32,000 bases of DNA from NCBI GenBank assembly GCA_009773615.1, contig WSYA01000013.1, forward strand, positions 1 to 32,000. The letters run 5' to 3'. Shown here piece by piece: positions 9,290 through 31,128 of the stretch. A model generated the notes under the pieces. It was not told the DNA's origin. It did no database searches and saw only the letters and a program-made list of their open reading frames with translations. Position 1 is the first letter of the stretch. Every line of letters starts with the position of its first letter. The translations under genes were made by a program, and so were the position numbers. Source of the DNA: Gallionellaceae bacterium (GTDB lineage: Bacteria; Pseudomonadota; Gammaproteobacteria; Burkholderiales; Gallionellaceae).

Positions 9290-10777
9290 ATGTTGTCCCC
9301 CATCACCGAACAAGAATTTCAATCGCTGGCCAAGCAAGGCTATAACCGTATTCCGCTGGTCACGGAGACGTTCGCCGATCTCGATACACCGTTGTCGCTG
9401 TACCTCAAGCTTGCCAATAAACCGTTTTCCTATCTGCTGGAATCGGTGCAGGGCGGTGAGCGTTTCGGGCGCTATTCTTTCATTGGCCTGCCTGCTGACA
9501 CGCGCATCACGGTACGTGGCAGACAAGTCACGCTGACCACGCCCGCCGGTGAAGCCAGCGAGGAAGTCGCCAATCCGCTGGACTACATCGAGAGCTATCA
9601 GGCGCAATTCAACGTAGCGCCGCTGTCAGGCCTGCCGCGCTTCACCGGCGGGTTGGCGGGCTATTTCGGTTACGACACCGTGCGCTATATCGAGCCTCGT
9701 CTTGCAAAGACGCAAAAGAAAGACGTGATCGGCACGCCCGATATATTGCTCATGCTCACCGAGCAGCTCGCGGTGGTCGACAACCTTTCTGGCAAACTCA
9801 CCTTCATTGTGTATGCCGATCCCGCACAGGGCGACGCTTACAAACAGGCACGCCAGCGTCTCGATAGTTTGTTGCGCGCCTTGCGCCAGCCGGTCAAAAT
9901 CCCCGAAGCGCCGCAGTTGCGCGGCTTTGAAGCTAAATCAGAATTCGGCGAAGACGCGTTTAAACACGCGGTGGAAGCCGCCAAACAATACATTTTCGAC
10001 GGCGACATCATGCAGGTGGTGTTGGCGCAGCGCATGGTGCAACCGTTTGCGGCTTCTCCGTTGTCGCTGTATCGCGCACTGCGCAGCATCAACCCCTCGC
10101 CCTATATGTTTTATTACGACATGGGCGACCACCACGTCGTCGGTTCCTCGCCGGAAATATTGGCGCGGCTGGAAGGCGACACCGTTACTGTGCGACCCAT
10201 TGCCGGGACGCGTCCGCGCGGCAAGTCAGCGCAGCAGGATGCCGAGCTTGCGCAGGAATTGCTGGCCGATCCGAAAGAGCTGGCCGAACATCTGATGCTG
10301 ATCGACCTCGGGCGCAATGACATCGGCCGCGTCGCGCAAAACGGCACAGTGAAACTCACCGACAAAATGGTGATCGAACGCTACTCGCATGTGATGCACA
10401 TCGTCTCCAACGTCGAGGCGAAGTTGAAAGAAGGACTCAGTGCGATGGATGTGCTCAAGGCCACTTTCCCGGCGGGCACGGTGAGCGGCGCGGCCAAAGT
10501 GCGCGCGATGGAAATCATCGACGAACTGGAGCCCAGCAAGCGCGGCATCTACGCGGGTGCGGTGGGTTACCTCGCCTTCAACGGCGACATGGATGTTGCT
10601 ATCGCATTACGTACCGCTGTGGTGAAAAACGACACGCTGTACGTGCAGGCGGGCGCGGGCATCGTCGCCGACTCCGTGCCGGACAGCGAATGGATGGAAA
10701 CGCAGAATAAGGCGCGCGCGGTGCTGCGCGCTTCAGAGATGGTGCTCGACGGGTTGGATGCGAAGGTGCATCGATGA
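9290..10777 (+). CDS. trpE: Anthranilate synthase component I
   Basis: 495 aa. 'GYNRIPLV', 'LSLYLKL', 'LLESV', 'IAGTRPRG', 'GAVGYL' and 'GAGIVADS' are typical TrpE motifs. Confidence 0.95.
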
Positions 10778-11178
10778 ACCAAACCACTCACCACAGAGAC
10801 ACAGAGACACAGAGAGACCCTTTGACTGATGCCGTAATCGGCGCTGCAATTGAGGTTCATCGTGCGCTTGGTGCCGGGTTGTTGGAATCAGCTTACGAAG
10901 AATGTTTGTGTTATGAACTGGGATGCCAGAATCTGAGTTTTATTCGACAGGTCTCTCTTCCCGTTCGCTATAAGGCCATTACGCTCGACAGTGCATATCG
11001 CATGGACATCGTAGTAGAAAACCAACTTGTGCTTGAATTAAAGTCTGTGGATAAATTACTGCCTATTCACGAAGCTCAGTTATTAACCTACCTCAGACTT
11101 GGCAGTTTCAAAACGGGGTTGTTATTGAATTTCAATTCCTCCGTTCTCAAAGACGGTCTGAAAAGGATGAAGCTATGA
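10774..11178 (+). CDS. GxxExxY family protein (PD-(D/E)XK nuclease superfamily)
   Basis: 134 aa. The signature 'GLLESAY' (GxxExxY) is present, and 'MDIVV...LELKS' gives a D...ExK pattern. The ATG overlaps the trpE stop (ATGA). The N-terminus '[10 protein letters not shown]' is encoded by the left inverted repeat. Sampled 60-nt lines are markedly AT-richer (about 38-45% GC) than a neighbouring trpE line (about 65%). Confidence 0.85.
10789..10815 (+). repeat. Left 27-bp inverted repeat CACCACAGAGACACAGAGACACAGAGA (three CACAGAGA octamers at 10792..10815)
   Basis: Read directly from the sequence. It is the exact reverse complement of 11188..11214. Confidence 0.97.
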
Positions 11179-11187
11179 CTCCGTTTT

Positions 11188-11214
11188 TCTCTGTGTCTCT
11201 GTGTCTCTGTGGTG
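11188..11214 (+). repeat. Right 27-bp inverted repeat TCTCTGTGTCTCTGTGTCTCTGTGGTG
   Basis: Read directly from the sequence. It lies 9 nt (11179..11187) after the GxxExxY stop and 10 nt before the trpG ATG. It is identical to 19281..19307. Confidence 0.97.
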
Positions 11215-11224
11215 GAGGTTTTTC

Positions 11225-11794
11225 ATGCTGTTGATGATCGACAATTACGACTCCTTTACCTACAACCTCGTGCAGTATTTCGCCGAACTCGGTGCCGAGG
11301 TGGCGGTGTACCGCAACGATGAAATAACCGTGGAGCAGATCGAGAAACTGAACCCGCAGCACCTCGTGGTTTCGCCCGGCCCGTGTACGCCGAACGAGGC
11401 GGGAATATCCGTCGCCGCGATCAAACATTTCGCCGGAAAGATCCCTTTGCTCGGCGTGTGCCTCGGTCACCAGAGCATCGGCCAGGCCTTCGGCGGCAAG
11501 ATCATCCACGCCAAGACGCTGATGCATGGCAAGACCTCGCTCATCCATCACCACGGCAATAGTTTGTTTACCGGATTACCCGATCCGTTCACCGCGACGC
11601 GTTATCATTCGCTGGTGATCGAGCGCGAGTCGCTGCCGGATTGTCTGGAGATCACCGCATGGACAGACGATGGCGAGATCATGGGCGTGCGCCACAAGAC
11701 ACTGGCAGTGCATGGCGTGCAGTTCCATCCCGAGTCGATCTTGACCGAGCACGGGCATGACATGCTGCGCAACTTTTTGAACGGAGCGAAATGA
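11225..11794 (+). CDS. trpG: Anthranilate synthase component II (glutamine amidotransferase)
   Basis: '[18 protein letters not shown]', catalytic 'GVCLGHQ' and 'GVQFHPES' are present. I take the start at ATG 11225, preceded by GGAGG (11214..11218) that abuts the right repeat. The track start at 11201 lies inside the repeat. Confidence 0.93.
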
Positions 11795-17341: not shown

Positions 17342-18438
17342 CGCGCGGCCTTTTCGTGCGAGATGCGGTAGTTGCGCACGGCTTCAAGGCTGCCGCTGAT
17401 GTCGGGAAGCTCGATGTTGATGTTGGATGCGGCGAGTTTCTGCAATGTCGCCTGCGCCTGCGCGCCTTCTTTGGCGCGCGTGTCGAAATAGATTCCTGTC
17501 CACTCTTGCGCGGTTTTCAGGTCGCGTTTGTAGCTCACTTCGTCGTGCGACAACAGGGCCAGTCTGGCGGAGAGCAGGCGTATCTTCAGGTTCTCTCTGA
17601 GGAAGAAAGTCTGCGTCGGCGACAGCAAAGGTAACTCGCGTTTTTGCGTGTTTTCGATGCGCACCAACTGTTTCACCTCAAACCATAATTCGCGCCAGAA
17701 CTTGTTCCATGCGTTTTCCGCGATGACGGGTGTGGGCAGCGGCTTAACCTCTTGTGTCCGTATGTCTTGCGATAGAGGTAGGGTATCGACGGCTGCGACC
17801 AGACTGTCGATACGCATATTGATGCCTGCCGCGTCGATATTGGGCAGCGCGCGCAATTTGTCGATGTCCTGATTGATAGATTTGCGTAGGCCACCCAATG
17901 TCGGGCGATCCAGACGCTGCAAACGGCTGTCGGCGTGCTGCATGGCAATCAGTGCGGCTTTTACGTTGGCGGAGAGTTGCAACTGCTGTCCTGCAATCAT
18001 CAGCATTTGTTCGACTTCGGCGAGCGCGGTCTGGTCGCGGCTGCTCGACATTTCCTGATACAGCGTATCCAGCGCGGCGCGCTGATTTTGCGCCTCGGCA
18101 TATTTGCTTTCCAGCAGACTGAGCTTGCCGCCGAGTTCGCGCACCACTTCCTGATTTTGGGTGACCAAGGTTTGATTGGCTTTGTTTGTGCCATCCATTT
18201 CCGTCAGCCGTTTGGCCAGTTCCTGCTGCACTTGATTGATCTGGTAATGCGCATCGAACCACTGCCACACAAAGATCACCACCAATACGGCGAGCGTCAT
18301 CTGCGTGAGGTTCAGATGCGAGATCAGATTCACCAAAGGGTTGTGGCCGGGAGTGCGCAGCATGGCGCGAAACGTGCCCGAATTCGTTCCGGTTTTGTTC
18401 CCGGCGGGTTGCTGATGAGACTGTGGTTGCTCGCTCAT
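17338..18438 (-). CDS. hemX: HemX-like membrane protein (annotated in databases as putative uroporphyrinogen-III C-methyltransferase)
   Basis: An N-terminal transmembrane helix 'MTLAVLVVIFVWQWF' is followed by a long Q/L-rich coiled coil. It sits between hemD and hemY. I prefer ATG 18438 (MSEQPQ...), which gives an ATGA overlap with the hemD stop. Confidence 0.78.
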   Translation of the reverse strand: MSEQPQSHQQPAGNKTGTNSGTFRAMLRTPGHNPLVNLISHLNLTQMTLAVLVVIFVWQWFDAHYQINQVQQELAKRLTEMDGTNKANQTLVTQNQEVVRELGGKLSLLESKYAEAQNQRAALDTLYQEMSSSRDQTALAEVEQMLMIAGQQLQLSANVKAALIAMQHADSRLQRLDRPTLGGLRKSINQDIDKLRALPNIDAAGINMRIDSLVAAVDTLPLSQDIRTQEVKPLPTPVIAENAWNKFWRELWFEVKQLVRIENTQKRELPLLSPTQTFFLRENLKIRLLSARLALLSHDEVSYKRDLKTAQEWTGIYFDTRAKEGAQAQATLQKLAASNINIELPDISGSLEAVRNYRISHEKAAR

Positions 18439-19217
18439 AAATGTTTTCCGATACAAGATTTAGCTTTTGACCATGCTACCAAACCGGACACGACTCCGTC
18501 ATCCCCGCTCGTCGTCTGTACAACTTTTCGCCAGCCTTGTTGTTCGGCTGCCGCCGCGATGCGGGCGTGCGGCACAAATAGTGTTACGTCCGCTATCTGC
18601 TTTTTCCCGGCCTCGTCGAACATCTCCCACAGATGAGCCAGCGCTTCGCTGCTGCTCAATGTGATGGCGTCTGCGCGGCTATTCAACAGCACGCCGATGT
18701 TCTGCGGTGTTCTGCTGCGCTGATAACAGGCGACATATTCCACGTTAGCGCCGCGCGCTTTGAGCGTGTCGCCCAATAGCTCGCGCCCCCCGTCGCCGCG
18801 AAAAATTGCGACTTTCCATCCGCGCACGTTTTGCAATTGCGGCAACACCAGCAAGGCTTCGCTGTCTGAGCGGCCTTGCGGTGCAATGACATCTTGTATG
18901 CCCGCATCGCGCAATGCTTTGGCGCTGCCTTGTCCCACGGTGGCGATGCGCAGCCCAGAGGGGACGCCGCCTGCCGCTGCAATTTCAGCCATGCCGTAAC
19001 GCACCGCATTGGGGCTGATGAAAATGGCGAGGTCGAATCCGGGCAGGCGGGCGATCAGGTTGCGCAAAGCGTGTGTGTCGGCCGGCGGACTGATATCGAG
19101 CAGCGGAAACAATACCGCGTTGCCGCCCAGCTGTTCTATGAGCTGCTGTAACTGGCCCGCCTGCTCGCGCGGGCGGGTGACCACGATGCTGAGTCCGGCA
19201 AGCGGCAACGATTCCAT
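18435..19217 (-). CDS. hemD: Uroporphyrinogen-III synthase
   Basis: 260 aa. The HemD-like pattern 'GLSIVVTRP..Q...L' appears with its repeat in the second half. It sits between hemC and hemX. Confidence 0.82.
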   Translation of the reverse strand: MESLPLAGLSIVVTRPREQAGQLQQLIEQLGGNAVLFPLLDISPPADTHALRNLIARLPGFDLAIFISPNAVRYGMAEIAAAGGVPSGLRIATVGQGSAKALRDAGIQDVIAPQGRSDSEALLVLPQLQNVRGWKVAIFRGDGGRELLGDTLKARGANVEYVACYQRSRTPQNIGVLLNSRADAITLSSSEALAHLWEMFDEAGKKQIADVTLFVPHARIAAAAEQQGWRKVVQTTSGDDGVVSGLVAWSKAKSCIGKHL

Positions 19218-19231
19218 TCAAGGCAAAACCT

Positions 19232-19307
19232 ACCACAGAGACACAGAGACACAGAGGAAAAACAAAACCTCAAAAGGTTTTCTCTGTGTCTCTGTGTCTC
19301 TGTGGTG
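19232..19307. repeat. 76-nt palindromic element: the same CACAGAGA-octamer inverted repeats as the trp cassette, but with only a 24-nt spacer
   Basis: The left arm 19232..19256 matches 25 of the 27 nt of the trp left arm. The right arm 19281..19307 is identical to 11188..11214. The spacer contains its own small hairpin (aaaacc/ggtttt). It lies in the hemC-hemD intercistronic gap. Confidence 0.95.
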
Positions 19308-19324
19308 AAAGATTTTTACTAAAA

Positions 19325-20275
19325 TCATAAAGACAGTGCGGCAAGGATATCGGCTGCGCCTTGCTTGAGCAAAGCCTCGGCCACGGCGTCGCCGAGCGCT
19401 TCCGGCGCGGCGATACTGCCGACCTGCTCGGCGCGCAGCATTTTGCTGCCATCGGGGCTGGCGACAAAACCGCGCATGCGCAGTTTGTCGCCCTGTACTT
19501 CCGCGAAGCCGCCCAGCGGTACCTGGCAGCTGCCCGCCAATGCGCGGCTCATGGCGCGTTCGGCGAACACGCAGGCGGCGGTTTCCGCATCGTGCAGCGG
19601 GCGCAGCAAAATTTCCAGATCGGGCCGGTCAGCGCGTGTTTCGATGCCCAGAGCGCCTTGTCCCACGGCGGGCAGGCTGTCTTCGCTGGAGATGAACGCG
19701 CGGATGCGCTCGCCCAGGCCGAGGCGCTTCAAGCCTGCGGCGGCCAGAATGATCGCGGCATATTGGCCTTCATCCAGCTTGCGCAAGCGCGTTTGCACGT
19801 TGCCGCGCAACGGCTCGATTTTCAAATGCGGGAAGCGCGCGCGCAACTGGCTTTCGCGGCGCAGGCTGGAAGTGCCGACCACGCTGCCCGCAGGCAAGGC
19901 TTCCAGATGGGCATGATGGTTGGAAACGAAGGCGTCGCGCGGATCTTCGCGTTTGCCGATGCAGGCCAGCACAAAGCCTTCGGGCAAATGCATCGGCACG
20001 TCTTTCAGGGAATGCACGGCGATATCGGCGCTGCCGTTCTCCAGTGCGGTTTCTAACTCCTTGACGAACAAACCTTTGCCGCCGATCTTGGAAAGCGTCA
20101 CGTCGAGTATTTGGTCGCCCTGTGTCGTCATGCCCAATATACTCACCTCGGTTTGTGGATATAATGCGCGCAGTCGATCCCTGATGTGTTCAGCCTGCCA
20201 CATTGCCAATGCGCTTTCGCGCGATGCGATGACCAGTTTTTTGGGTGCGGGTGTCGTCTGGGATGCCTGATTCAT
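19325..20275 (-). CDS. hemC: Hydroxymethylbilane synthase (porphobilinogen deaminase)
   Basis: 316 aa. '[15 protein letters not shown]', 'TTQGDQILD', '[11 protein letters not shown]' and the cofactor Cys in '[11 protein letters not shown]' are present. Confidence 0.94.
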
Positions 20276-26616: not shown

Positions 26617-29600
26617 ATGAATACGATACGAATTTTAATGACTTGCGCGTTCGTTGCCATGTTGGGCAATTCCATTCGGGGACAGGCGGAAGACATCGAC
26701 TTGTACAGCTCCGCAGCCAGCGTGACGGGGACGGATCTGCCCAATGTGCTGTTCATCATGGATAACGCGGCCAACTTCAACGCCAGCGCTGCTGCATGCA
26801 CTTATGCCGATACTGGCCTCGCACCTAGCTTGGGCAACACCACCGGCGGCATAGAGCAATGCGCGCTGGTCAACGCGATCAATTCTTTGCCGCTCGACAC
26901 CGTCAACATCGGCATCATGGCCTACAACAAAACCGGGATGGACACTTTATACGGCTGCCAAGCAGGCGGTACCGGCGGTTGTCTGGTGAAGGCTCTTACC
27001 CGGATGAATGCCGCAGGCAAGGCCGCCATCATCGCCAACATCAAGGCATGGACCTCAGGCACCATACAGTCCAATAACGAAGCGACCGCGCAGGCCATGC
27101 AGGAAGCATGGGCCTACTATGCCGGCAAACAAGGCATGTCAGGCAGAACCTATACTTCTACCGCGCTGAGCGGTTGCCAGAAAAACTATGTTATTTATAT
27201 TGGCAACGCCTTTAACAACTCCGGTTCTCCCGGCGATGCCAGCGCTAGTCCGGGCGCTCGGTTGGCGACAACGATCACCAACAATACTGCCCTGAGCACC
27301 GCGCAGAGGACGTTGCTTGGGGCGGCTATTCAGATACCCTCCGGTGCCTACGGCACCAGTGCGTTCACCTGCTCGCCCAATCCTTATACCTTGAATTTGT
27401 CCAATGGCCACGGCGAAACCACCGGTCTGTATGCGGACGAATGGGCGCGCTACATGCACGCCACTGATCTCAGCACTGGCGCTATGCCCGCCACCAAAAA
27501 AATCTTCACCTACACGATCGGCGTGTTGGATACCGCTTGCAAGGCAGATTATCCCGCCCTGCTCACCAGCATGGCGCTCAACGGCGGCGGAAAATATTTC
27601 CCCACCGGCAACGCGGCCGACATACAGCAAGCCATACTGCGCGTGCTCAATGAGGTGCAGGCGGTCAACAGCGTGTTCTCTTCCGCCAGCTTGCCGGTCA
27701 GCGTGAACACTCAGGGTACTTACCTCAACCAGATTTTCATGGGCATGTTCCGTCCGGATTCCGGCGGCGTCCCCAGATGGAAGGGCAACCTCAAGCAGTA
27801 TCAGTTCGTTTACGATCCGACCGCAAAGCAGCTGAGCTTGGCCGACGCGACGGGAGCGGCGGCCATCAGCGCGGCGGGGACTGGTTTTCTCTCCCCGAAT
27901 GCGGCCAGTTTCTGGACCTGCACGAATGCCGCAAATACGCAAAACCGAGTTACCCCCTACAATGTGGCGCCCTACAGCAATACCTCCATTTGCAGCAACT
28001 CGACGCCTTACACGGACCCGGCTGTCGGCTTCTGGGCGAACGATAAGAACGGCCAAGGGCTTGCCTGGGACTTGCCCGACGGCGAAGTGGTGGAAAAAGG
28101 TGGGGCGGCACAAATACTGCGTCTGGCTAACCTCAACAATACTTACACCGCAGTGCCCGGTACGTCCACCAACCCGCGCAATCTCTACACTTATTTGGGC
28201 GCGAATGCCGCCCTGTCGAATGCGGTTAATGTCTTCGATACCTCGAACGCGACCATCACCGATGCGATGCTGGGGACGGGGCCGTTAACCATCAGCTCCA
28301 TCAACAGCGCCTCCACGGTGCAGGCGAACAGCTTTACTCCCAGTGCCGCCGGAACAGCTGCAACGATTACGATCACTAACTTCGCAAAAGGATCAGGTAG
28401 TACAGTAACAGCAACCGTGGCATCGACAGCGGCCTTGGTGGCGGGCACCACGCAATTTACGGTAGCTACCGGAAGCACAAAATACGATTGCACTGCCTGT
28501 ACGGTAGCGACCATCGTCGATGCCACCCAATTCACCTATATTGCTTCACCTGGAACTCAAACTGCGCCAGCCACGCCTTATGTGGCAGCAATTTTGTCCA
28601 ACTTCGTGACGGTAAGCAGCACTGCCCACGGTTTGGCGGTTGGACAGACCATGACGGTCTCTGCCTGCGCTACGCACACGACGTTAAATGCCACTGACGC
28701 TACGGTCAGTTCGGTGACCAACACCAATACCTTTGTGATTTCTACAGCAGTGACTCTCGGTTCAACGGCGGTGGATGCCTCATGCAGATATTCTCTTAAG
28801 ACCGCTACCGTCACCACTGCGGCGGCTCACGGCTTGCCTACGGGGGCGCTCGTCGCCATCGCCGGGGCGGCTCCTGCGGGCTATAACGGCTCATGGGTCA
28901 TCAAGGCCGTTGGCACCACTACGTTTACTTACCAATATACGGCCGCTGCGCCGCTGGCCAATTTCGCCGGCGCAGGTGCGACCGCTACCAGCAGCATCAC
29001 CACCCGCGATATGCTCACCCGTTGGGTGCGCGGCGAAGATAACCTCGGCGACGAGGCGAGCTTGTGCCCGCCGGGTAGCACTGCGGGGGTCGGCAATTGC
29101 CCGAATCCAGCGGTGAATATCCGTCCTTCGGTGCATGGCGATGTGCTGCACTCGCGCCCGGTGGTGCTTAACTACGGCGGGGGAGCGATAGCCATCACCG
29201 CAATCGCCGATTCTGGCACCACCCGCACCGCGACGGCCTCGGCGGCGGATGTGGCGAAGATCGGAGCGACGAACGCTCAAGCCAATGTCACGTTCGACAA
29301 CGGCCTTTCCTGCAAGGTGACAGTCGCCTCTACAACCACGTTTACTTACCCCACCACGGGCTGCGGGACAGCTACTGCCCCGCAATCCGCAGCGACTTCT
29401 GCCCCCAACGTGATTGTGTTCTATGGCGGCAACGATGGCGTATTCCGTTCCGTCAACGGCAATCAGGTAAACCCGATATCAAGCCCGTTCACTTTGCCCA
29501 CGCCGGGCGGCGAATTATGGGGATTTATCCCGGACGAGTTTTTCGGCCAGCTCAAGCGGCAGCACGACAACAGTCCGGCGCTGTTGATGCCGTCCACGCC

Positions 29601-31128
29601 GGCCGGCATTATTCCCACGCCGCAGAAAAAGGACTATTTTGTCGACGGGTCGACCGGGGTATACCAAGTGATAGACGGGACGGGCAAAACCACGAAGGCT
29701 TACCTTTACCTCGCTATGCGCCGTGGCGGTCGTCTCATTTATGCGCTGGATGTGACCGATCCGACCAACCCGAAATTTTTGTGGAAGCACAGCAATGCGG
29801 ATGCGGGTTTTAGCGAGCTGGGGCAAACTTGGTCACAGCCCAAAGTCGCCACAGTTGCCGGTTACGCCAACCCGGTGCTGATCTTCGGCGCGGGCTATGA
29901 CGCGGCTGCCGAAGATGTGGAGCCGCCTACAGCCGATACTATGGGACGCGGTATTTTTATTCTGGACGCGGTCACCGGTAGTGTCGTGTGGAAGGCTACT
30001 TATGGCGCTGCTTTATCGTGCCCGTCCGCTTCAGCAGCCTGTACGTTGCCGGAGATGAAATACAGTGTCCCTTCCGATATCACCCTGCTGGACAGGAACA
30101 ACGATGGAAAGATCGACCGGTTATATGTGGGCGATGTAGGGGGCAACATGTGGCGCGTGGATCTCGAACCTACCGGTGCTCACAAAACTCCCGTATTCTG
30201 GCAGGTGGAGAAACTGGCTGCACTGGGTTGCACTACCGGCGTGTGCGCCGCCGGAGTTGCGCCGCGCAAAATCTTCTATCCGCCGGAGGTGATCATTACG
30301 TCGGGCTATGATGCGGTATTCACCGCTACCGGCGACCGCGAGCATCCTCTCTATAGCACGACCGGGATAACCATCACCGCCACTGTTAACTCCGGCTCCA
30401 CCCGTACCGCGACGGCTTCGGCCGCCGATGTAGCGAAAATCGGGGCGGTAGGTGCCACGAAAGCGACCACATTCGACAATAAGCAAACTTGCACGGTGAC
30501 GGTCGCTTCGGCAACCACCTTTACTTACCCCGCTTCAGGCTGCGGGGATGCCGGGGCACAAAGCGCAAAGGTCGTCATCACGCAATCGGCCTGCACCGTC
30601 ACGAACCGCGCCTACCTGCTAAAAGATACGGCTACCGGCACGGATGGCAGCGGTCTCACCACCCTTACCGAATCCAACTTGTTCAACGCCACGGCTACCC
30701 TTTGGGATGGTACGCTCAGCGGCTATTACGTCACGTTTAATTTCTGTGAGAAATCCGTCAACGCGCCGCTCGTGGTGGCGGGATATATCTATTTCGGTAC
30801 GAATCAGGCGAAAGCTCAGGAAAAAGATGTCTGCGAGGAGTCGCTGGGCGAAGCGGTCGGTTACAAGCTGGCACCCTTTACCGGGAAGTATGCTGAAGGG
30901 GAATTTGAAGGCGGAGGCTTGCCGCCTTCTCCGGTAGCCGGTGTTGTGAACATCGTAGACGCGGCAGGAAAAACCATCCAAGTCGCCTTCTGCATCGGCT
31001 GCGGCGGCGAGGACGATAATGGCGGCAATACCGGTTGCGGCAGCGAATCGGCGCTGGCGGGCTGCAAGCCGCCAATTGAGGTTACATCAAGCCGCAGTAG
31101 AACCTACTGGTACATCAAGGGTAAATGA
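26617..31128 (+). CDS. pilY1: PilY1-type type IV pilus tip adhesin / biogenesis factor (1503 aa, expanded)
   Basis: A signal peptide is followed by an N-terminal vWA-like region. The C-terminal beta-propeller region carries the PilY1 EF-hand-like Ca site 'DRNNDGKIDRLYVGDVGGNMWRVDL' (30091..30165). It is the last gene of the minor pilin operon, with GGAGGA 8 nt upstream of the ATG. Confidence 0.9.
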   Translation: MNTIRILMTCAFVAMLGNSIRGQAEDIDLYSSAASVTGTDLPNVLFIMDNAANFNASAAACTYADTGLAPSLGNTTGGIEQCALVNAINSLPLDTVNIGIMAYNKTGMDTLYGCQAGGTGGCLVKALTRMNAAGKAAIIANIKAWTSGTIQSNNEATAQAMQEAWAYYAGKQGMSGRTYTSTALSGCQKNYVIYIGNAFNNSGSPGDASASPGARLATTITNNTALSTAQRTLLGAAIQIPSGAYGTSAFTCSPNPYTLNLSNGHGETTGLYADEWARYMHATDLSTGAMPATKKIFTYTIGVLDTACKADYPALLTSMALNGGGKYFPTGNAADIQQAILRVLNEVQAVNSVFSSASLPVSVNTQGTYLNQIFMGMFRPDSGGVPRWKGNLKQYQFVYDPTAKQLSLADATGAAAISAAGTGFLSPNAASFWTCTNAANTQNRVTPYNVAPYSNTSICSNSTPYTDPAVGFWANDKNGQGLAWDLPDGEVVEKGGAAQILRLANLNNTYTAVPGTSTNPRNLYTYLGANAALSNAVNVFDTSNATITDAMLGTGPLTISSINSASTVQANSFTPSAAGTAATITITNFAKGSGSTVTATVASTAALVAGTTQFTVATGSTKYDCTACTVATIVDATQFTYIASPGTQTAPATPYVAAILSNFVTVSSTAHGLAVGQTMTVSACATHTTLNATDATVSSVTNTNTFVISTAVTLGSTAVDASCRYSLKTATVTTAAAHGLPTGALVAIAGAAPAGYNGSWVIKAVGTTTFTYQYTAAAPLANFAGAGATATSSITTRDMLTRWVRGEDNLGDEASLCPPGSTAGVGNCPNPAVNIRPSVHGDVLHSRPVVLNYGGGAIAITAIADSGTTRTATASAADVAKIGATNAQANVTFDNGLSCKVTVASTTTFTYPTTGCGTATAPQSAATSAPNVIVFYGGNDGVFRSVNGNQVNPISSPFTLPTPGGELWGFIPDEFFGQLKRQHDNSPALLMPSTPAGIIPTPQKKDYFVDGSTGVYQVIDGTGKTTKAYLYLAMRRGGRLIYALDVTDPTNPKFLWKHSNADAGFSELGQTWSQPKVATVAGYANPVLIFGAGYDAAAEDVEPPTADTMGRGIFILDAVTGSVVWKATYGAALSCPSASAACTLPEMKYSVPSDITLLDRNNDGKIDRLYVGDVGGNMWRVDLEPTGAHKTPVFWQVEKLAALGCTTGVCAAGVAPRKIFYPPEVIITSGYDAVFTATGDREHPLYSTTGITITATVNSGSTRTATASAADVAKIGAVGATKATTFDNKQTCTVTVASATTFTYPASGCGDAGAQSAKVVITQSACTVTNRAYLLKDTATGTDGSGLTTLTESNLFNATATLWDGTLSGYYVTFNFCEKSVNAPLVVAGYIYFGTNQAKAQEKDVCEESLGEAVGYKLAPFTGKYAEGEFEGGGLPPSPVAGVVNIVDAAGKTIQVAFCIGCGGEDDNGGNTGCGSESALAGCKPPIEVTSSRSRTYWYIKGK

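Follow-up and report, generated by a model that had tools for sequence, protein, structure and literature searches.

Several classes of small palindromic elements have been described from bacterial genomes. In REPIN/RAYT systems (PMC3116915, PMC3337134, bioRxiv 10.1101/2021.07.10.451892), doublets of repetitive extragenic palindromic (REP) sequences occur together with a REP-associated tyrosine transposase. The Correia elements (CREE/NEMIS) of Neisseria and other bacterial MITEs (miniature inverted-repeat transposable elements) represent a second class (PMC2649163, PMC2229807, PMC10969869), and the intervening sequences (IVS) of 23S ribosomal RNA (rRNA), some of them with a small open reading frame (ORF) for an S23p or four-helix-bundle protein, a third (PMC4990558, PMC2672173). 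Our analysis concerns a palindrome between the genes hemC and hemD on a stretch of 32,000 nucleotides (nt) from a Gallionellaceae bacterium (GenBank assembly GCA_009773615.1, contig WSYA01000013.1, positions 1 to 32,000; hereafter the window). This palindrome is probably a non-autonomous, gene-less version of an element that is widespread and that encodes, in its gene-carrying form, a GxxExxY nuclease of the PD-(D/E)XK type, that is, a selfish palindrome similar to REPIN/RAYT, with a different enzyme, that is tolerated in operon junctions.

The similarities to REPIN/RAYT are dispersed extragenic hairpin palindromes arranged as inverted doublets (79 gene-less hairpins in our survey), a small enzyme gene that is bracketed by inverted repeats and is inherited vertically at a fixed locus (here the trp operon), a large excess of gene-less copies, and the lack of a target-site duplication. 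The enzyme, however, belongs to the PD-(D/E)XK proteins (PF13366) and not to the HUH tyrosine transposases of the IS200/IS605 type. The arms also differ in being tandem hepta- or octamer repeats, one strictly without T and the other strictly without A, and the copies in standing in very tight operon junctions, with the enzyme gene wired into the host operon. Furthermore, REPIN sequences are lineage-specific, whereas the present arm is common to several phyla and apparently to both domains.

With Correia elements and other bacterial MITEs the palindrome shares the character of a small non-autonomous inverted-repeat insertion that would be co-transcribed with its neighbours and would form a long RNA hairpin, a possible substrate of RNase III. 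Correia elements have a TA target duplication, a site for integration host factor and promoter-forming ends, are restricted to Neisseria and have no known partner gene; for the present element, in contrast, we found no duplication, a partner nuclease gene and a distribution across phyla. Terminal inverted repeats and small size are also features of classical MITEs derived from DDE transposons, but a target-site duplication is missing here, as is an autonomous parent with a transposase, the gene-carrying form encoding only a PD-(D/E)XK nuclease of 134 amino acids (aa). Like 23S IVS, the element has a long stem that is either empty or surrounds a small ORF of unknown function, and it is inserted at sites where cutting of the transcript would be harmless; IVS too are regarded as selfish. 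IVS are, however, located in helices of 23S rRNA and removed by RNase III, whereas the present element lies between protein genes and carries an ORF of another family. Rickettsia palindromic elements are insertions that are open to translation and hence tolerated in translated regions; they are found within coding sequences and are incorporated into the protein product. The present elements differ in lying between genes, where any translation would give a separate mini-ORF. Judged by titles and abstracts, the MITE and REPIN papers retrieved do not cover the element. Literature searches on the GxxExxY or PDDEXK_3 proteins, on the arm sequence and on IVS or proteins of the four-helix-bundle type returned no description of it; three papers name GxxExxY, none of them in connection with repeats, and no paper contains the arm sequence, with the limit that curator notes and subscription papers may have been missed.

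The hairpin between hemC and hemD

The hem palindrome (positions 19232-19307) consists of two arms of 25-27 nt, built of CACAGAGA octamers, around a 24-nt loop. Both the arms (ACCACAGAGACACAGAGACACAGAG at 19232-19256 and TCTCTGTGTCTCTGTGTCTCTGTGGTG at 19281-19307) and a nested mini-hairpin in the loop (aaaacc-tcaa-aaggtttt) are present as an earlier, sequence-only reading of this DNA had stated. A repeat finder extended the arms to 29 nt with 97% complementarity, 17 nt apart. The upstream gene hemC (hydroxymethylbilane synthase, 19325..20275; TIGR00212, E = 1.6e-106), the downstream gene hemD (uroporphyrinogen-III synthase, 18435..19217; PF02602) and hemX are all encoded on the minus strand, so that the mRNA reads right to left through the element and the arm at 19281-19307 comes first. 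In the mRNA sense this first arm is CACCACAGAGACACAGAGACACAGAGA, with three CACAGAGN octamers and no T, and is identical to positions 11188-11214 in the trp operon. The second arm (19232..19256, minus strand) is CTCTGTGTCTCTGTGTCTCTGTGGT, contains no A and is identical to 10790-10814, and the loop between them (19257..19280, minus strand) is predicted to pair through aaaacc/ggtttt. The spacings given in the earlier reading were also right: the hemC stop is separated from the first arm by 17 nt and the hemD ATG from the second by 14 nt, compared to 11 and 10 nt in trp.

The complete gene-less element is predicted to form a 92-nt hairpin (19225..19316, minus strand) with an outer stem, the octamer arms, an inner A/T extension and the loop. 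In the centroid RNA fold the pairing partners are 19316-19310 and 19231-19225 as well as 19306-19275 and 19256-19225, and the stem contains a perfect duplex of more than 25 base pairs (bp). For 121 nt around the hairpin the transcribed strand folds as RNA with -59.8 kcal/mol, far below shuffled sequences (z = -9.2); as single-stranded DNA the same 121 nt give -39.3 kcal/mol (z = -11.9). The hairpin is predicted to be transcribed as part of the hemC-hemD mRNA. A 15-mer core of the arms, CACAGAGACACAGAG, occurs eight times in the window with 0.00 expected from shuffles, and no further arm copies with up to three mismatches were found in the window.

Comparison with relatives revealed the same junction without the hairpin. 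On a contig about 94% identical to the window, from the groundwater metagenome runs X7 and X8, position 19205 is joined to 19338 via the 17 nt GGTGTCAGTCATTCAAA and the hairpin is skipped. The metagenome contig L126, with a hemD of 86% aa identity, has the junction ...TTGAATGACTGA..., i.e. GCC GCT TTG AAT GAC TGA, with the hemD ATG inside. In both of these empty junctions stop and start overlap by 8 nt (ATGACTGA), and the more distant relative L127 has a hemC/hemD spacer of 14 nt; three loci in total were returned by the metagenome scan for hemD relatives. The window carries about 115 extra nt compared to the empty hem allele and differs from it in the last two codons and the stop of hemC and in codons 2-4 of hemD. 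Since relatives without the hairpin have overlapping genes, the hem hairpin is an insertion and dispensable for the architecture of the hem operon; judged from these alignments, the insertion appears to have split a translationally coupled hemC/hemD pair. The earlier suggestion of a MITE-like derivative is borne out to this extent. An empty counterpart also exists for the trp copy described below: in a relative the trpE-trpG junction reads TAA-GGAGAAACGAAC-ATG and joins 10773 to 11224 via TTAAGGAGAAACGAA. At the next junction of the operon the situation is reversed, with an empty trpG/trpD junction in the window (ATGA overlap, 11791..11794, plus strand) and a gene-less hairpin at this junction in the relative L130 (L130:3546-3662), which also carries the trp GxxExxY element.

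The gene-carrying copy in trp and the wider family

The gene-carrying element lies between trpE and trpG (10778..11224, plus strand) and is composed of an outer stem, an arm (10789-10815), a GxxExxY ORF, a second arm (11188-11214) and again the outer stem. Its two 27-nt arms are 100% complementary. The arms of the hem and trp elements are identical and the flanks 88-92% alike; specifically, 19278-19316 and 11185-11223 are 92% identical with an identical core at 11188-11214. That the empty hairpin and the gene-carrying form are the same element, as the sequence-only reading had proposed, is thereby upheld, since the same arms enclose either a loop of 10-150 nt or a GxxExxY ORF across at least 120 foreign loci. 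These loci derive from a scan of 185,579 species genomes with the exact arm 23-mer, and all family counts given here rest on at least 120 loci with that one arm.

The ORF itself (10774..11178, plus strand, 134 aa) starts with an ATG that overlaps the trpE stop (ATGA); the gene has no room for its own promoter. It belongs to the GxxExxY/PDDEXK_3 nucleases, with scores well above the cut-offs for TIGR04256 (E = 1e-42, 145 bits, cut-off 35) and PF13366 PDDEXK_3 (E = 1e-41, 142 bits, cut-off 22), its only matches in Pfam and NCBIfam. The D...ExK motif is intact and D78, E88 and K90 are invariant in 48 homologues. An AlphaFold (AF2) model reached a predicted local distance difference test score (pLDDT) of 89 overall and below 50 for residues 1-12; the arm encodes residues 7-14 (HRDTETQR), which are predicted to be disordered. 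No solved structure matched the ORF by sequence, and the closest solved folds were weak hits (template modelling score about 0.4) to generic PD-(D/E)XK nucleases, i.e. Cas4 SSO0001, lambda exonuclease and an archaeal splicing endonuclease. Searches against the PADLOC defence library gave marginal similarity to Cas4 only (E = 0.004) and those against PHROGs gave nothing.

All four of the closest homologues located on long contigs (77-86% identity) are arranged as trpE-ORF-trpG, and the same order was found in L070 and L027, where nucleotide identity has dropped to about 65-70% and the arms are still 100% identical. The trp copy is therefore old and has been inherited vertically in a betaproteobacterial clade, and the arms are under much stronger constraint than the coding sequence. 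In two relatives (L129:2857-2950 and L132:2560-3058) a further small palindrome, ggctggcaaaagcgccagcc, has been added to the trp element in the space that separates the ORF from the second arm, and L132 has a degenerate first arm.

The exact 23-mer was detected in Acidobacteriota, Planctomycetota, Gemmatimonadota, Alpha- and Betaproteobacteria, Verrucomicrobiota, Chlamydiota, Cloacimonadota, Bacteroidota and Cyanobacteria. Carriers include isolates and complete genomes, namely Sulfuricella sp. T08, Undibacterium spp., Candidatus Desulfobacillus denitrificans and a complete Pyrinomonadaceae chromosome. The same arms were found on two contigs of putative archaeal origin, from metagenome-assembled genomes (MAGs) assigned to Methanocellaceae (335 kb, L044:5350-5650) and Methanotrichaceae (628 kb, L051:6314-6399). 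On the Methanocellaceae contig several CACAGAG motifs are part of a composite palindrome about 300 nt long. The sequence outside the arms varies by lineage yet stays complementary (gagctaac/gttagctc, aacagc/gctgtt, gggctca/tgagccc), and pairing at outer-stem positions 1-5 and 7 exceeds all 500 partner shuffles, with three to four pair types. These comparisons show that the arms are nearly invariant across phyla and that their surroundings covary so that a long stem is kept.

Arms of different sequence but similar build accompany other GxxExxY genes, such as ACGCCAAG repeats in L008, CGCGAAGG in Sphingomonas, and CACAGAGGA or CGCAGAGGA in Bacteroides finegoldii and Gemmatirosa. In isolates the arms have the form TTCAC-(CRCRRAG)n and the outer stem often reads TTCAC...GTGAA. 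With the exception of Bernardetia, whose arm contains a few Ts, all the arm pairs listed consist of a T-free and an A-free arm; such arms contain no stop codon in any frame. The GxxExxY family as a whole comprises 20,291 clusters at 50% identity (E <= 1e-3). A phage or plasmid vehicle for the element is not supported, as the protein family was absent from 50,697 phage records and rare on plasmids, with eight copies, mostly on megaplasmids.

Among the loci listed we counted 99 pairs of an arm and an inverted arm. Seventy-nine of them are gene-less, with loops of 10-150 nt (the limit of this class being 160 nt), and about 11 have a gap of 367-608 nt. All nine recognisable ORFs in these gaps are GxxExxY homologues, one of them frameshifted; no ORF was called in the cargo-sized gap of L083, and in L022 there is none with homology. 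Gene-less copies thus outnumber gene-carrying ones by about 7 to 1 in the sampled arm pairs.

For the hem copy it might be argued that a full-length GxxExxY element once occupied the hemC-hemD junction and lost its ORF by internal deletion. The ends of the hem loop do resemble the interior ends of the trp element in mRNA sense (AAAACCTTTTGA vs AGACCCTTTGA, GTTTTTC vs GTTTTTC), the hem hairpin retains a polarity in sense, having an ATG at the upstream stop, and the junctions occupied by full-length copies are likewise tight and same-direction. Decaying cargo is also known from L058, where a GxxExxY ORF between intact CACAGAG arms is broken by a frameshift into pieces of 82 and 66 aa (L058:5780-6331). 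However, most gene-less loops do not resemble what an ORF would leave behind; they are mostly A/T extensions of the stem, with an A-rich start that is complementary to the T-run in front of the other arm. L111 contains two hairpins, separated by 3.3 kb, whose loops are homologous and oppositely oriented, and L015 and L043 hold near-identical gene-less copies. These patterns indicate copying of the gene-less form and, together with the 7 to 1 ratio, speak against decay in place as the general origin; for the hem copy we regard it as an unlikely explanation that could nevertheless apply.

Several further loci illustrate how the hairpins are arranged. In a Gemmatimonadetes MAG (L015:134-6844) nine arms lie within 8 kb, including two nearly identical hairpins that share their left flanks, and a contig of a Pirellula MAG (L043:4582-4860) terminates in three or more hairpins that follow each other in tandem every 128 nt. 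A CACAGAG hairpin in L074 (L074:54-226) holds a second hairpin with CACGAAG-repeat arms in its loop, so that an element of a sister type is nested in it. In Calothrix sp. NIES-4105 a single arm, CTCTGTGTCTCTGTGTCTCTGTGG, stands 14 nt past a stop codon, with no partner arm visible (L115:6122-6146). On plasmid 1 of Gemmatirosa kalamazoonensis (L138) a gene-less hairpin with CGCAGAGGA arms (9-nt period) is located about 50 nt past a GxxExxY match, a gene without flanking arms in our scan. Proteins P0121-P0132 (266-295 aa) contain two tandem GxxExxY domains and may be true fusions or the result of read-through between adjacent elements.

In the source community the arm k-mer reaches a depth of 3,000-46,000 compared to a background of 10-100. 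The palindrome breaks short-read assemblies: four independent Logan contigs (L122-L125) begin 44 nt upstream of hemD, at about 19261 of the window and inside the hairpin, and many GxxExxY homologues are found on contigs of about 1 kb. These breaks in De Bruijn contigs, together with the simple octamer composition of the arms, could be taken to mean that the palindrome is a chance, microsatellite-like sequence or an assembly artefact. This reading has a negligible probability and is refuted by the shuffles (none vs eight observed), by the recovery of the element in independent assemblies, isolates and complete genomes, and by the covariation of the outer stems.

Placement, transcription and possible translation of the copies

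The 79 gene-less hairpins were classified by their neighbours, using heuristic gene calls (longest ORF plus a filter on G+C content at third codon positions), into 46 between same-direction genes, 13 convergent, 5 divergent, 5 inside a called ORF and 10 at locus edges. For the 64 copies flanked by called genes at both ends, the same-direction share is 72% compared to a background of 67%, and divergent junctions are underrepresented. The median distance between the upstream stop and the arm is 20 nt, that between the arm and the next start 33 nt. About 27 of these 64 copies leave a non-element spacer of at most 100 nt, a class of spacer that holds 6.5-9.4% of the intergenic bases in the same loci. 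Gene-carrying copies are equally wedged, and their cargo ORF is co-directional with tight neighbours in at least 8 of 10 loci and in 3 of 3 isolates; RefSeq-annotated examples from isolates are fabD-[GxxExxY]-fabG, radA-[GxxExxY]-FAD protein and ade-[GxxExxY]-guanylyltransferase. Copies are thus shown to accumulate in very tight junctions between same-direction genes. Of the intercistronic preference claimed in the sequence-only reading, the part on tight junctions holds when measured by gene ends, whereas the same-direction share is near background and the preference for essential operons is anecdotal (trp, hem, fab).

The earlier reading had also proposed that the arm nearest to the downstream gene supplies the Shine-Dalgarno (SD) sequence. 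This applies to trp, where the SD of trpG is a GGAGG at the 3' end of the element, 6 nt ahead of the ATG. The case is weak for hem, with an AGG ending 11 nt before the ATG, and as a rule for the whole family an SD-like motif after the arm was rejected (8/28 sense vs 5/28 antisense, not significant).

A mini-ORF of 32 codons (19230..19328, minus strand) spans the hem hairpin. It begins at an ATG overlapping the hemC stop (ATGA) and terminates with a TAG, 12 nt short of the hemD ATG. The trpG-trpD hairpin of L130 is likewise covered by a 52-aa ORF (L130:3521-3679) whose start lies at the trpG stop (TGATG) and whose end lies on the trpD ATGA. In tight junctions, a hairpin-spanning ORF led by ATG, defined as one that starts at most 45 nt upstream, passes through the whole hairpin and stops at most 45 nt after it, occurred in 10/28 cases in sense and in 0/28 in antisense (p = 0.001), the antisense strand being an imperfect control. 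The number of stop-free frames was equal in sense and antisense, and an asymmetry of open frames was rejected. The mini-ORF might act as a translational bridge between hemC and hemD, which we regard as a lead and not as a result.

No RNA run was found to hold the source genome, and the runs that hold the locus are groundwater DNA metagenomes only. Transcription could be followed at a sister hairpin in Candidatus Desulfobacillus denitrificans (L095:2637-2703), a locus present in four metatranscriptomes from three studies. One RNA contig crosses this hairpin from 2570 to beyond 3300. Depth changed from upstream to downstream from 65 to 79, 102 to 126 and 8 to 14 and was lower downstream in one run (19 to 12), values that come from assembled contigs at another locus and reflect expression poorly, with DNA carry-over also possible. 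A contig in metatranscriptome X28 ends with Illumina adaptor inside the first arm at L095:2647 and another ends at 2649, which may reflect a discrete RNA end or an assembly artefact.

A partial terminator, one of the functions offered in the sequence-only reading, does not agree with these observations, since the hem copy has no terminator-like tail and the sister copy in L095 is transcribed through. A pattern scan found no terminator-like site between 18900 and 19700, and the Ts after the hem arm are paired inside the outer stem in the RNA fold. The hem hairpin thus lacks the combination that defines an intrinsic terminator, a GC-rich stem with a U-run directly after it and a transcript drop, the drop being judged on L095. 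Rfam 15 gave no match at the gathering threshold, and no rRNA, for the window and 17 loci; sub-threshold matches were to generic microRNA-precursor hairpins and were rejected as chance. Stem mismatches of same-direction hairpins, read on the sense strand, were G·U in 24 cases and A·C in 24, which gives no sign of selection specific to the sense RNA. The constraint looks strand-symmetric, as would be the case for a DNA hairpin or cruciform or if mismatches are not selected at all.

The same data bear on the possibility that the palindrome serves the host as an RNA element, for example as a processing site for RNase III or another enzyme, as an mRNA stabiliser or as an attenuator that sets the hemC:hemD ratio, and was spread by recruitment as for REP and Correia sequences. 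The stability of the RNA hairpin (-59.8 kcal/mol, z = -9.2), its perfect duplex of more than 25 bp, which is long enough for RNase III, and its position exactly between two cistrons are in favour of such a role, as are the transcription of the L095 copy and the hint of a discrete RNA end inside its arm. It is contradicted by close relatives that run overlapping hem genes without the hairpin, by the same sequence standing in unrelated junctions of many phyla (at least 120 loci), by G·U pairs not exceeding A·C in sense, by RNA depth that did not fall across L095 in three of four runs, and by the lack of a terminator tail and of an Rfam match. Overall we consider a host RNA function improbable.

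We therefore prefer the reading of the hem palindrome as a gene-less copy of a selfish element, for which the following mechanism is conceivable. The vertically kept, repeat-bracketed nuclease would recognise the stem of CACAGAG repeats as a DNA hairpin or cruciform and would drive, or at least maintain, the gene-less copies in trans. The hem hairpin would be nearly neutral for the hem operon and not a regulator of its host. It might be tolerated because arms without T or without A carry no stop in any frame, and in about a third of the tight junctions, including hem, ribosomes translating the mini-ORF might melt the stem, so that translation of hemC and hemD would stay coupled.

Several points weigh against this reading, in addition to the limits of the L095 contig depths and of the heuristic gene calls. 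In both the hem and the trp pair of filled and empty junctions the whole native spacer is replaced and not simply interrupted. The longest direct repeats in the flanks (15 nt outside the palindrome, 76 copies) had the same length distribution as in the shuffled control, so that no target-site duplication is seen, and no target motif for insertion was found. ATGA was rejected as a conserved target, as an ATG within -3..+10 of the upstream stop occurred in 15/51 cases compared to 87/394 in the background (not significant). The mini-ORF is missing from about two thirds of the tight junctions. A hydrolytic PD-(D/E)XK nuclease cannot rejoin DNA alone and would need host repair or replication to finish the reaction. 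Finally, nuclease activity, binding to the arms and mobilisation in trans are proposals, and the trans model assumes a cognate GxxExxY gene for every genome with a hairpin.

Elsewhere in the window, positions 29187-30546 contain two pairs of direct repeats (76-79% identical, 1179 nt apart) within an ORF of 1503 aa (26617-31128), apparently a domain duplication within this very large protein.

Meaning for the GxxExxY family

GxxExxY proteins form a very large family that is routinely named by RefSeq and has no known function, and their occurrence as the gene-carrying form of a hairpin element gives them a testable role. The 23-nt arm is kept from Betaproteobacteria to Acidobacteriota, Planctomycetota and putative archaeal MAGs, and is present in cultured strains too. 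The hairpins also have practical consequences, as they break short-read assemblies, give rise to spurious small ORFs (...HRDTETQR..., ...LCVSVSLW) and alter the ends of neighbouring genes. In its widest and clearly more tentative form, which we consider possible but doubtful, our interpretation would describe a new cross-domain class of 'operon-junction' palindromes, in which a PD-(D/E)XK gene located in host operons maintains gene-less hairpins, the arms can be read by ribosomes in any frame and mini-ORFs preserve translational coupling. This would be a replicator similar to REPIN/RAYT with a different chemistry and its own way of being harmless. If true, the element would provide a second, chemically different example for the REPIN/RAYT model of long-lived intragenomic replicators.

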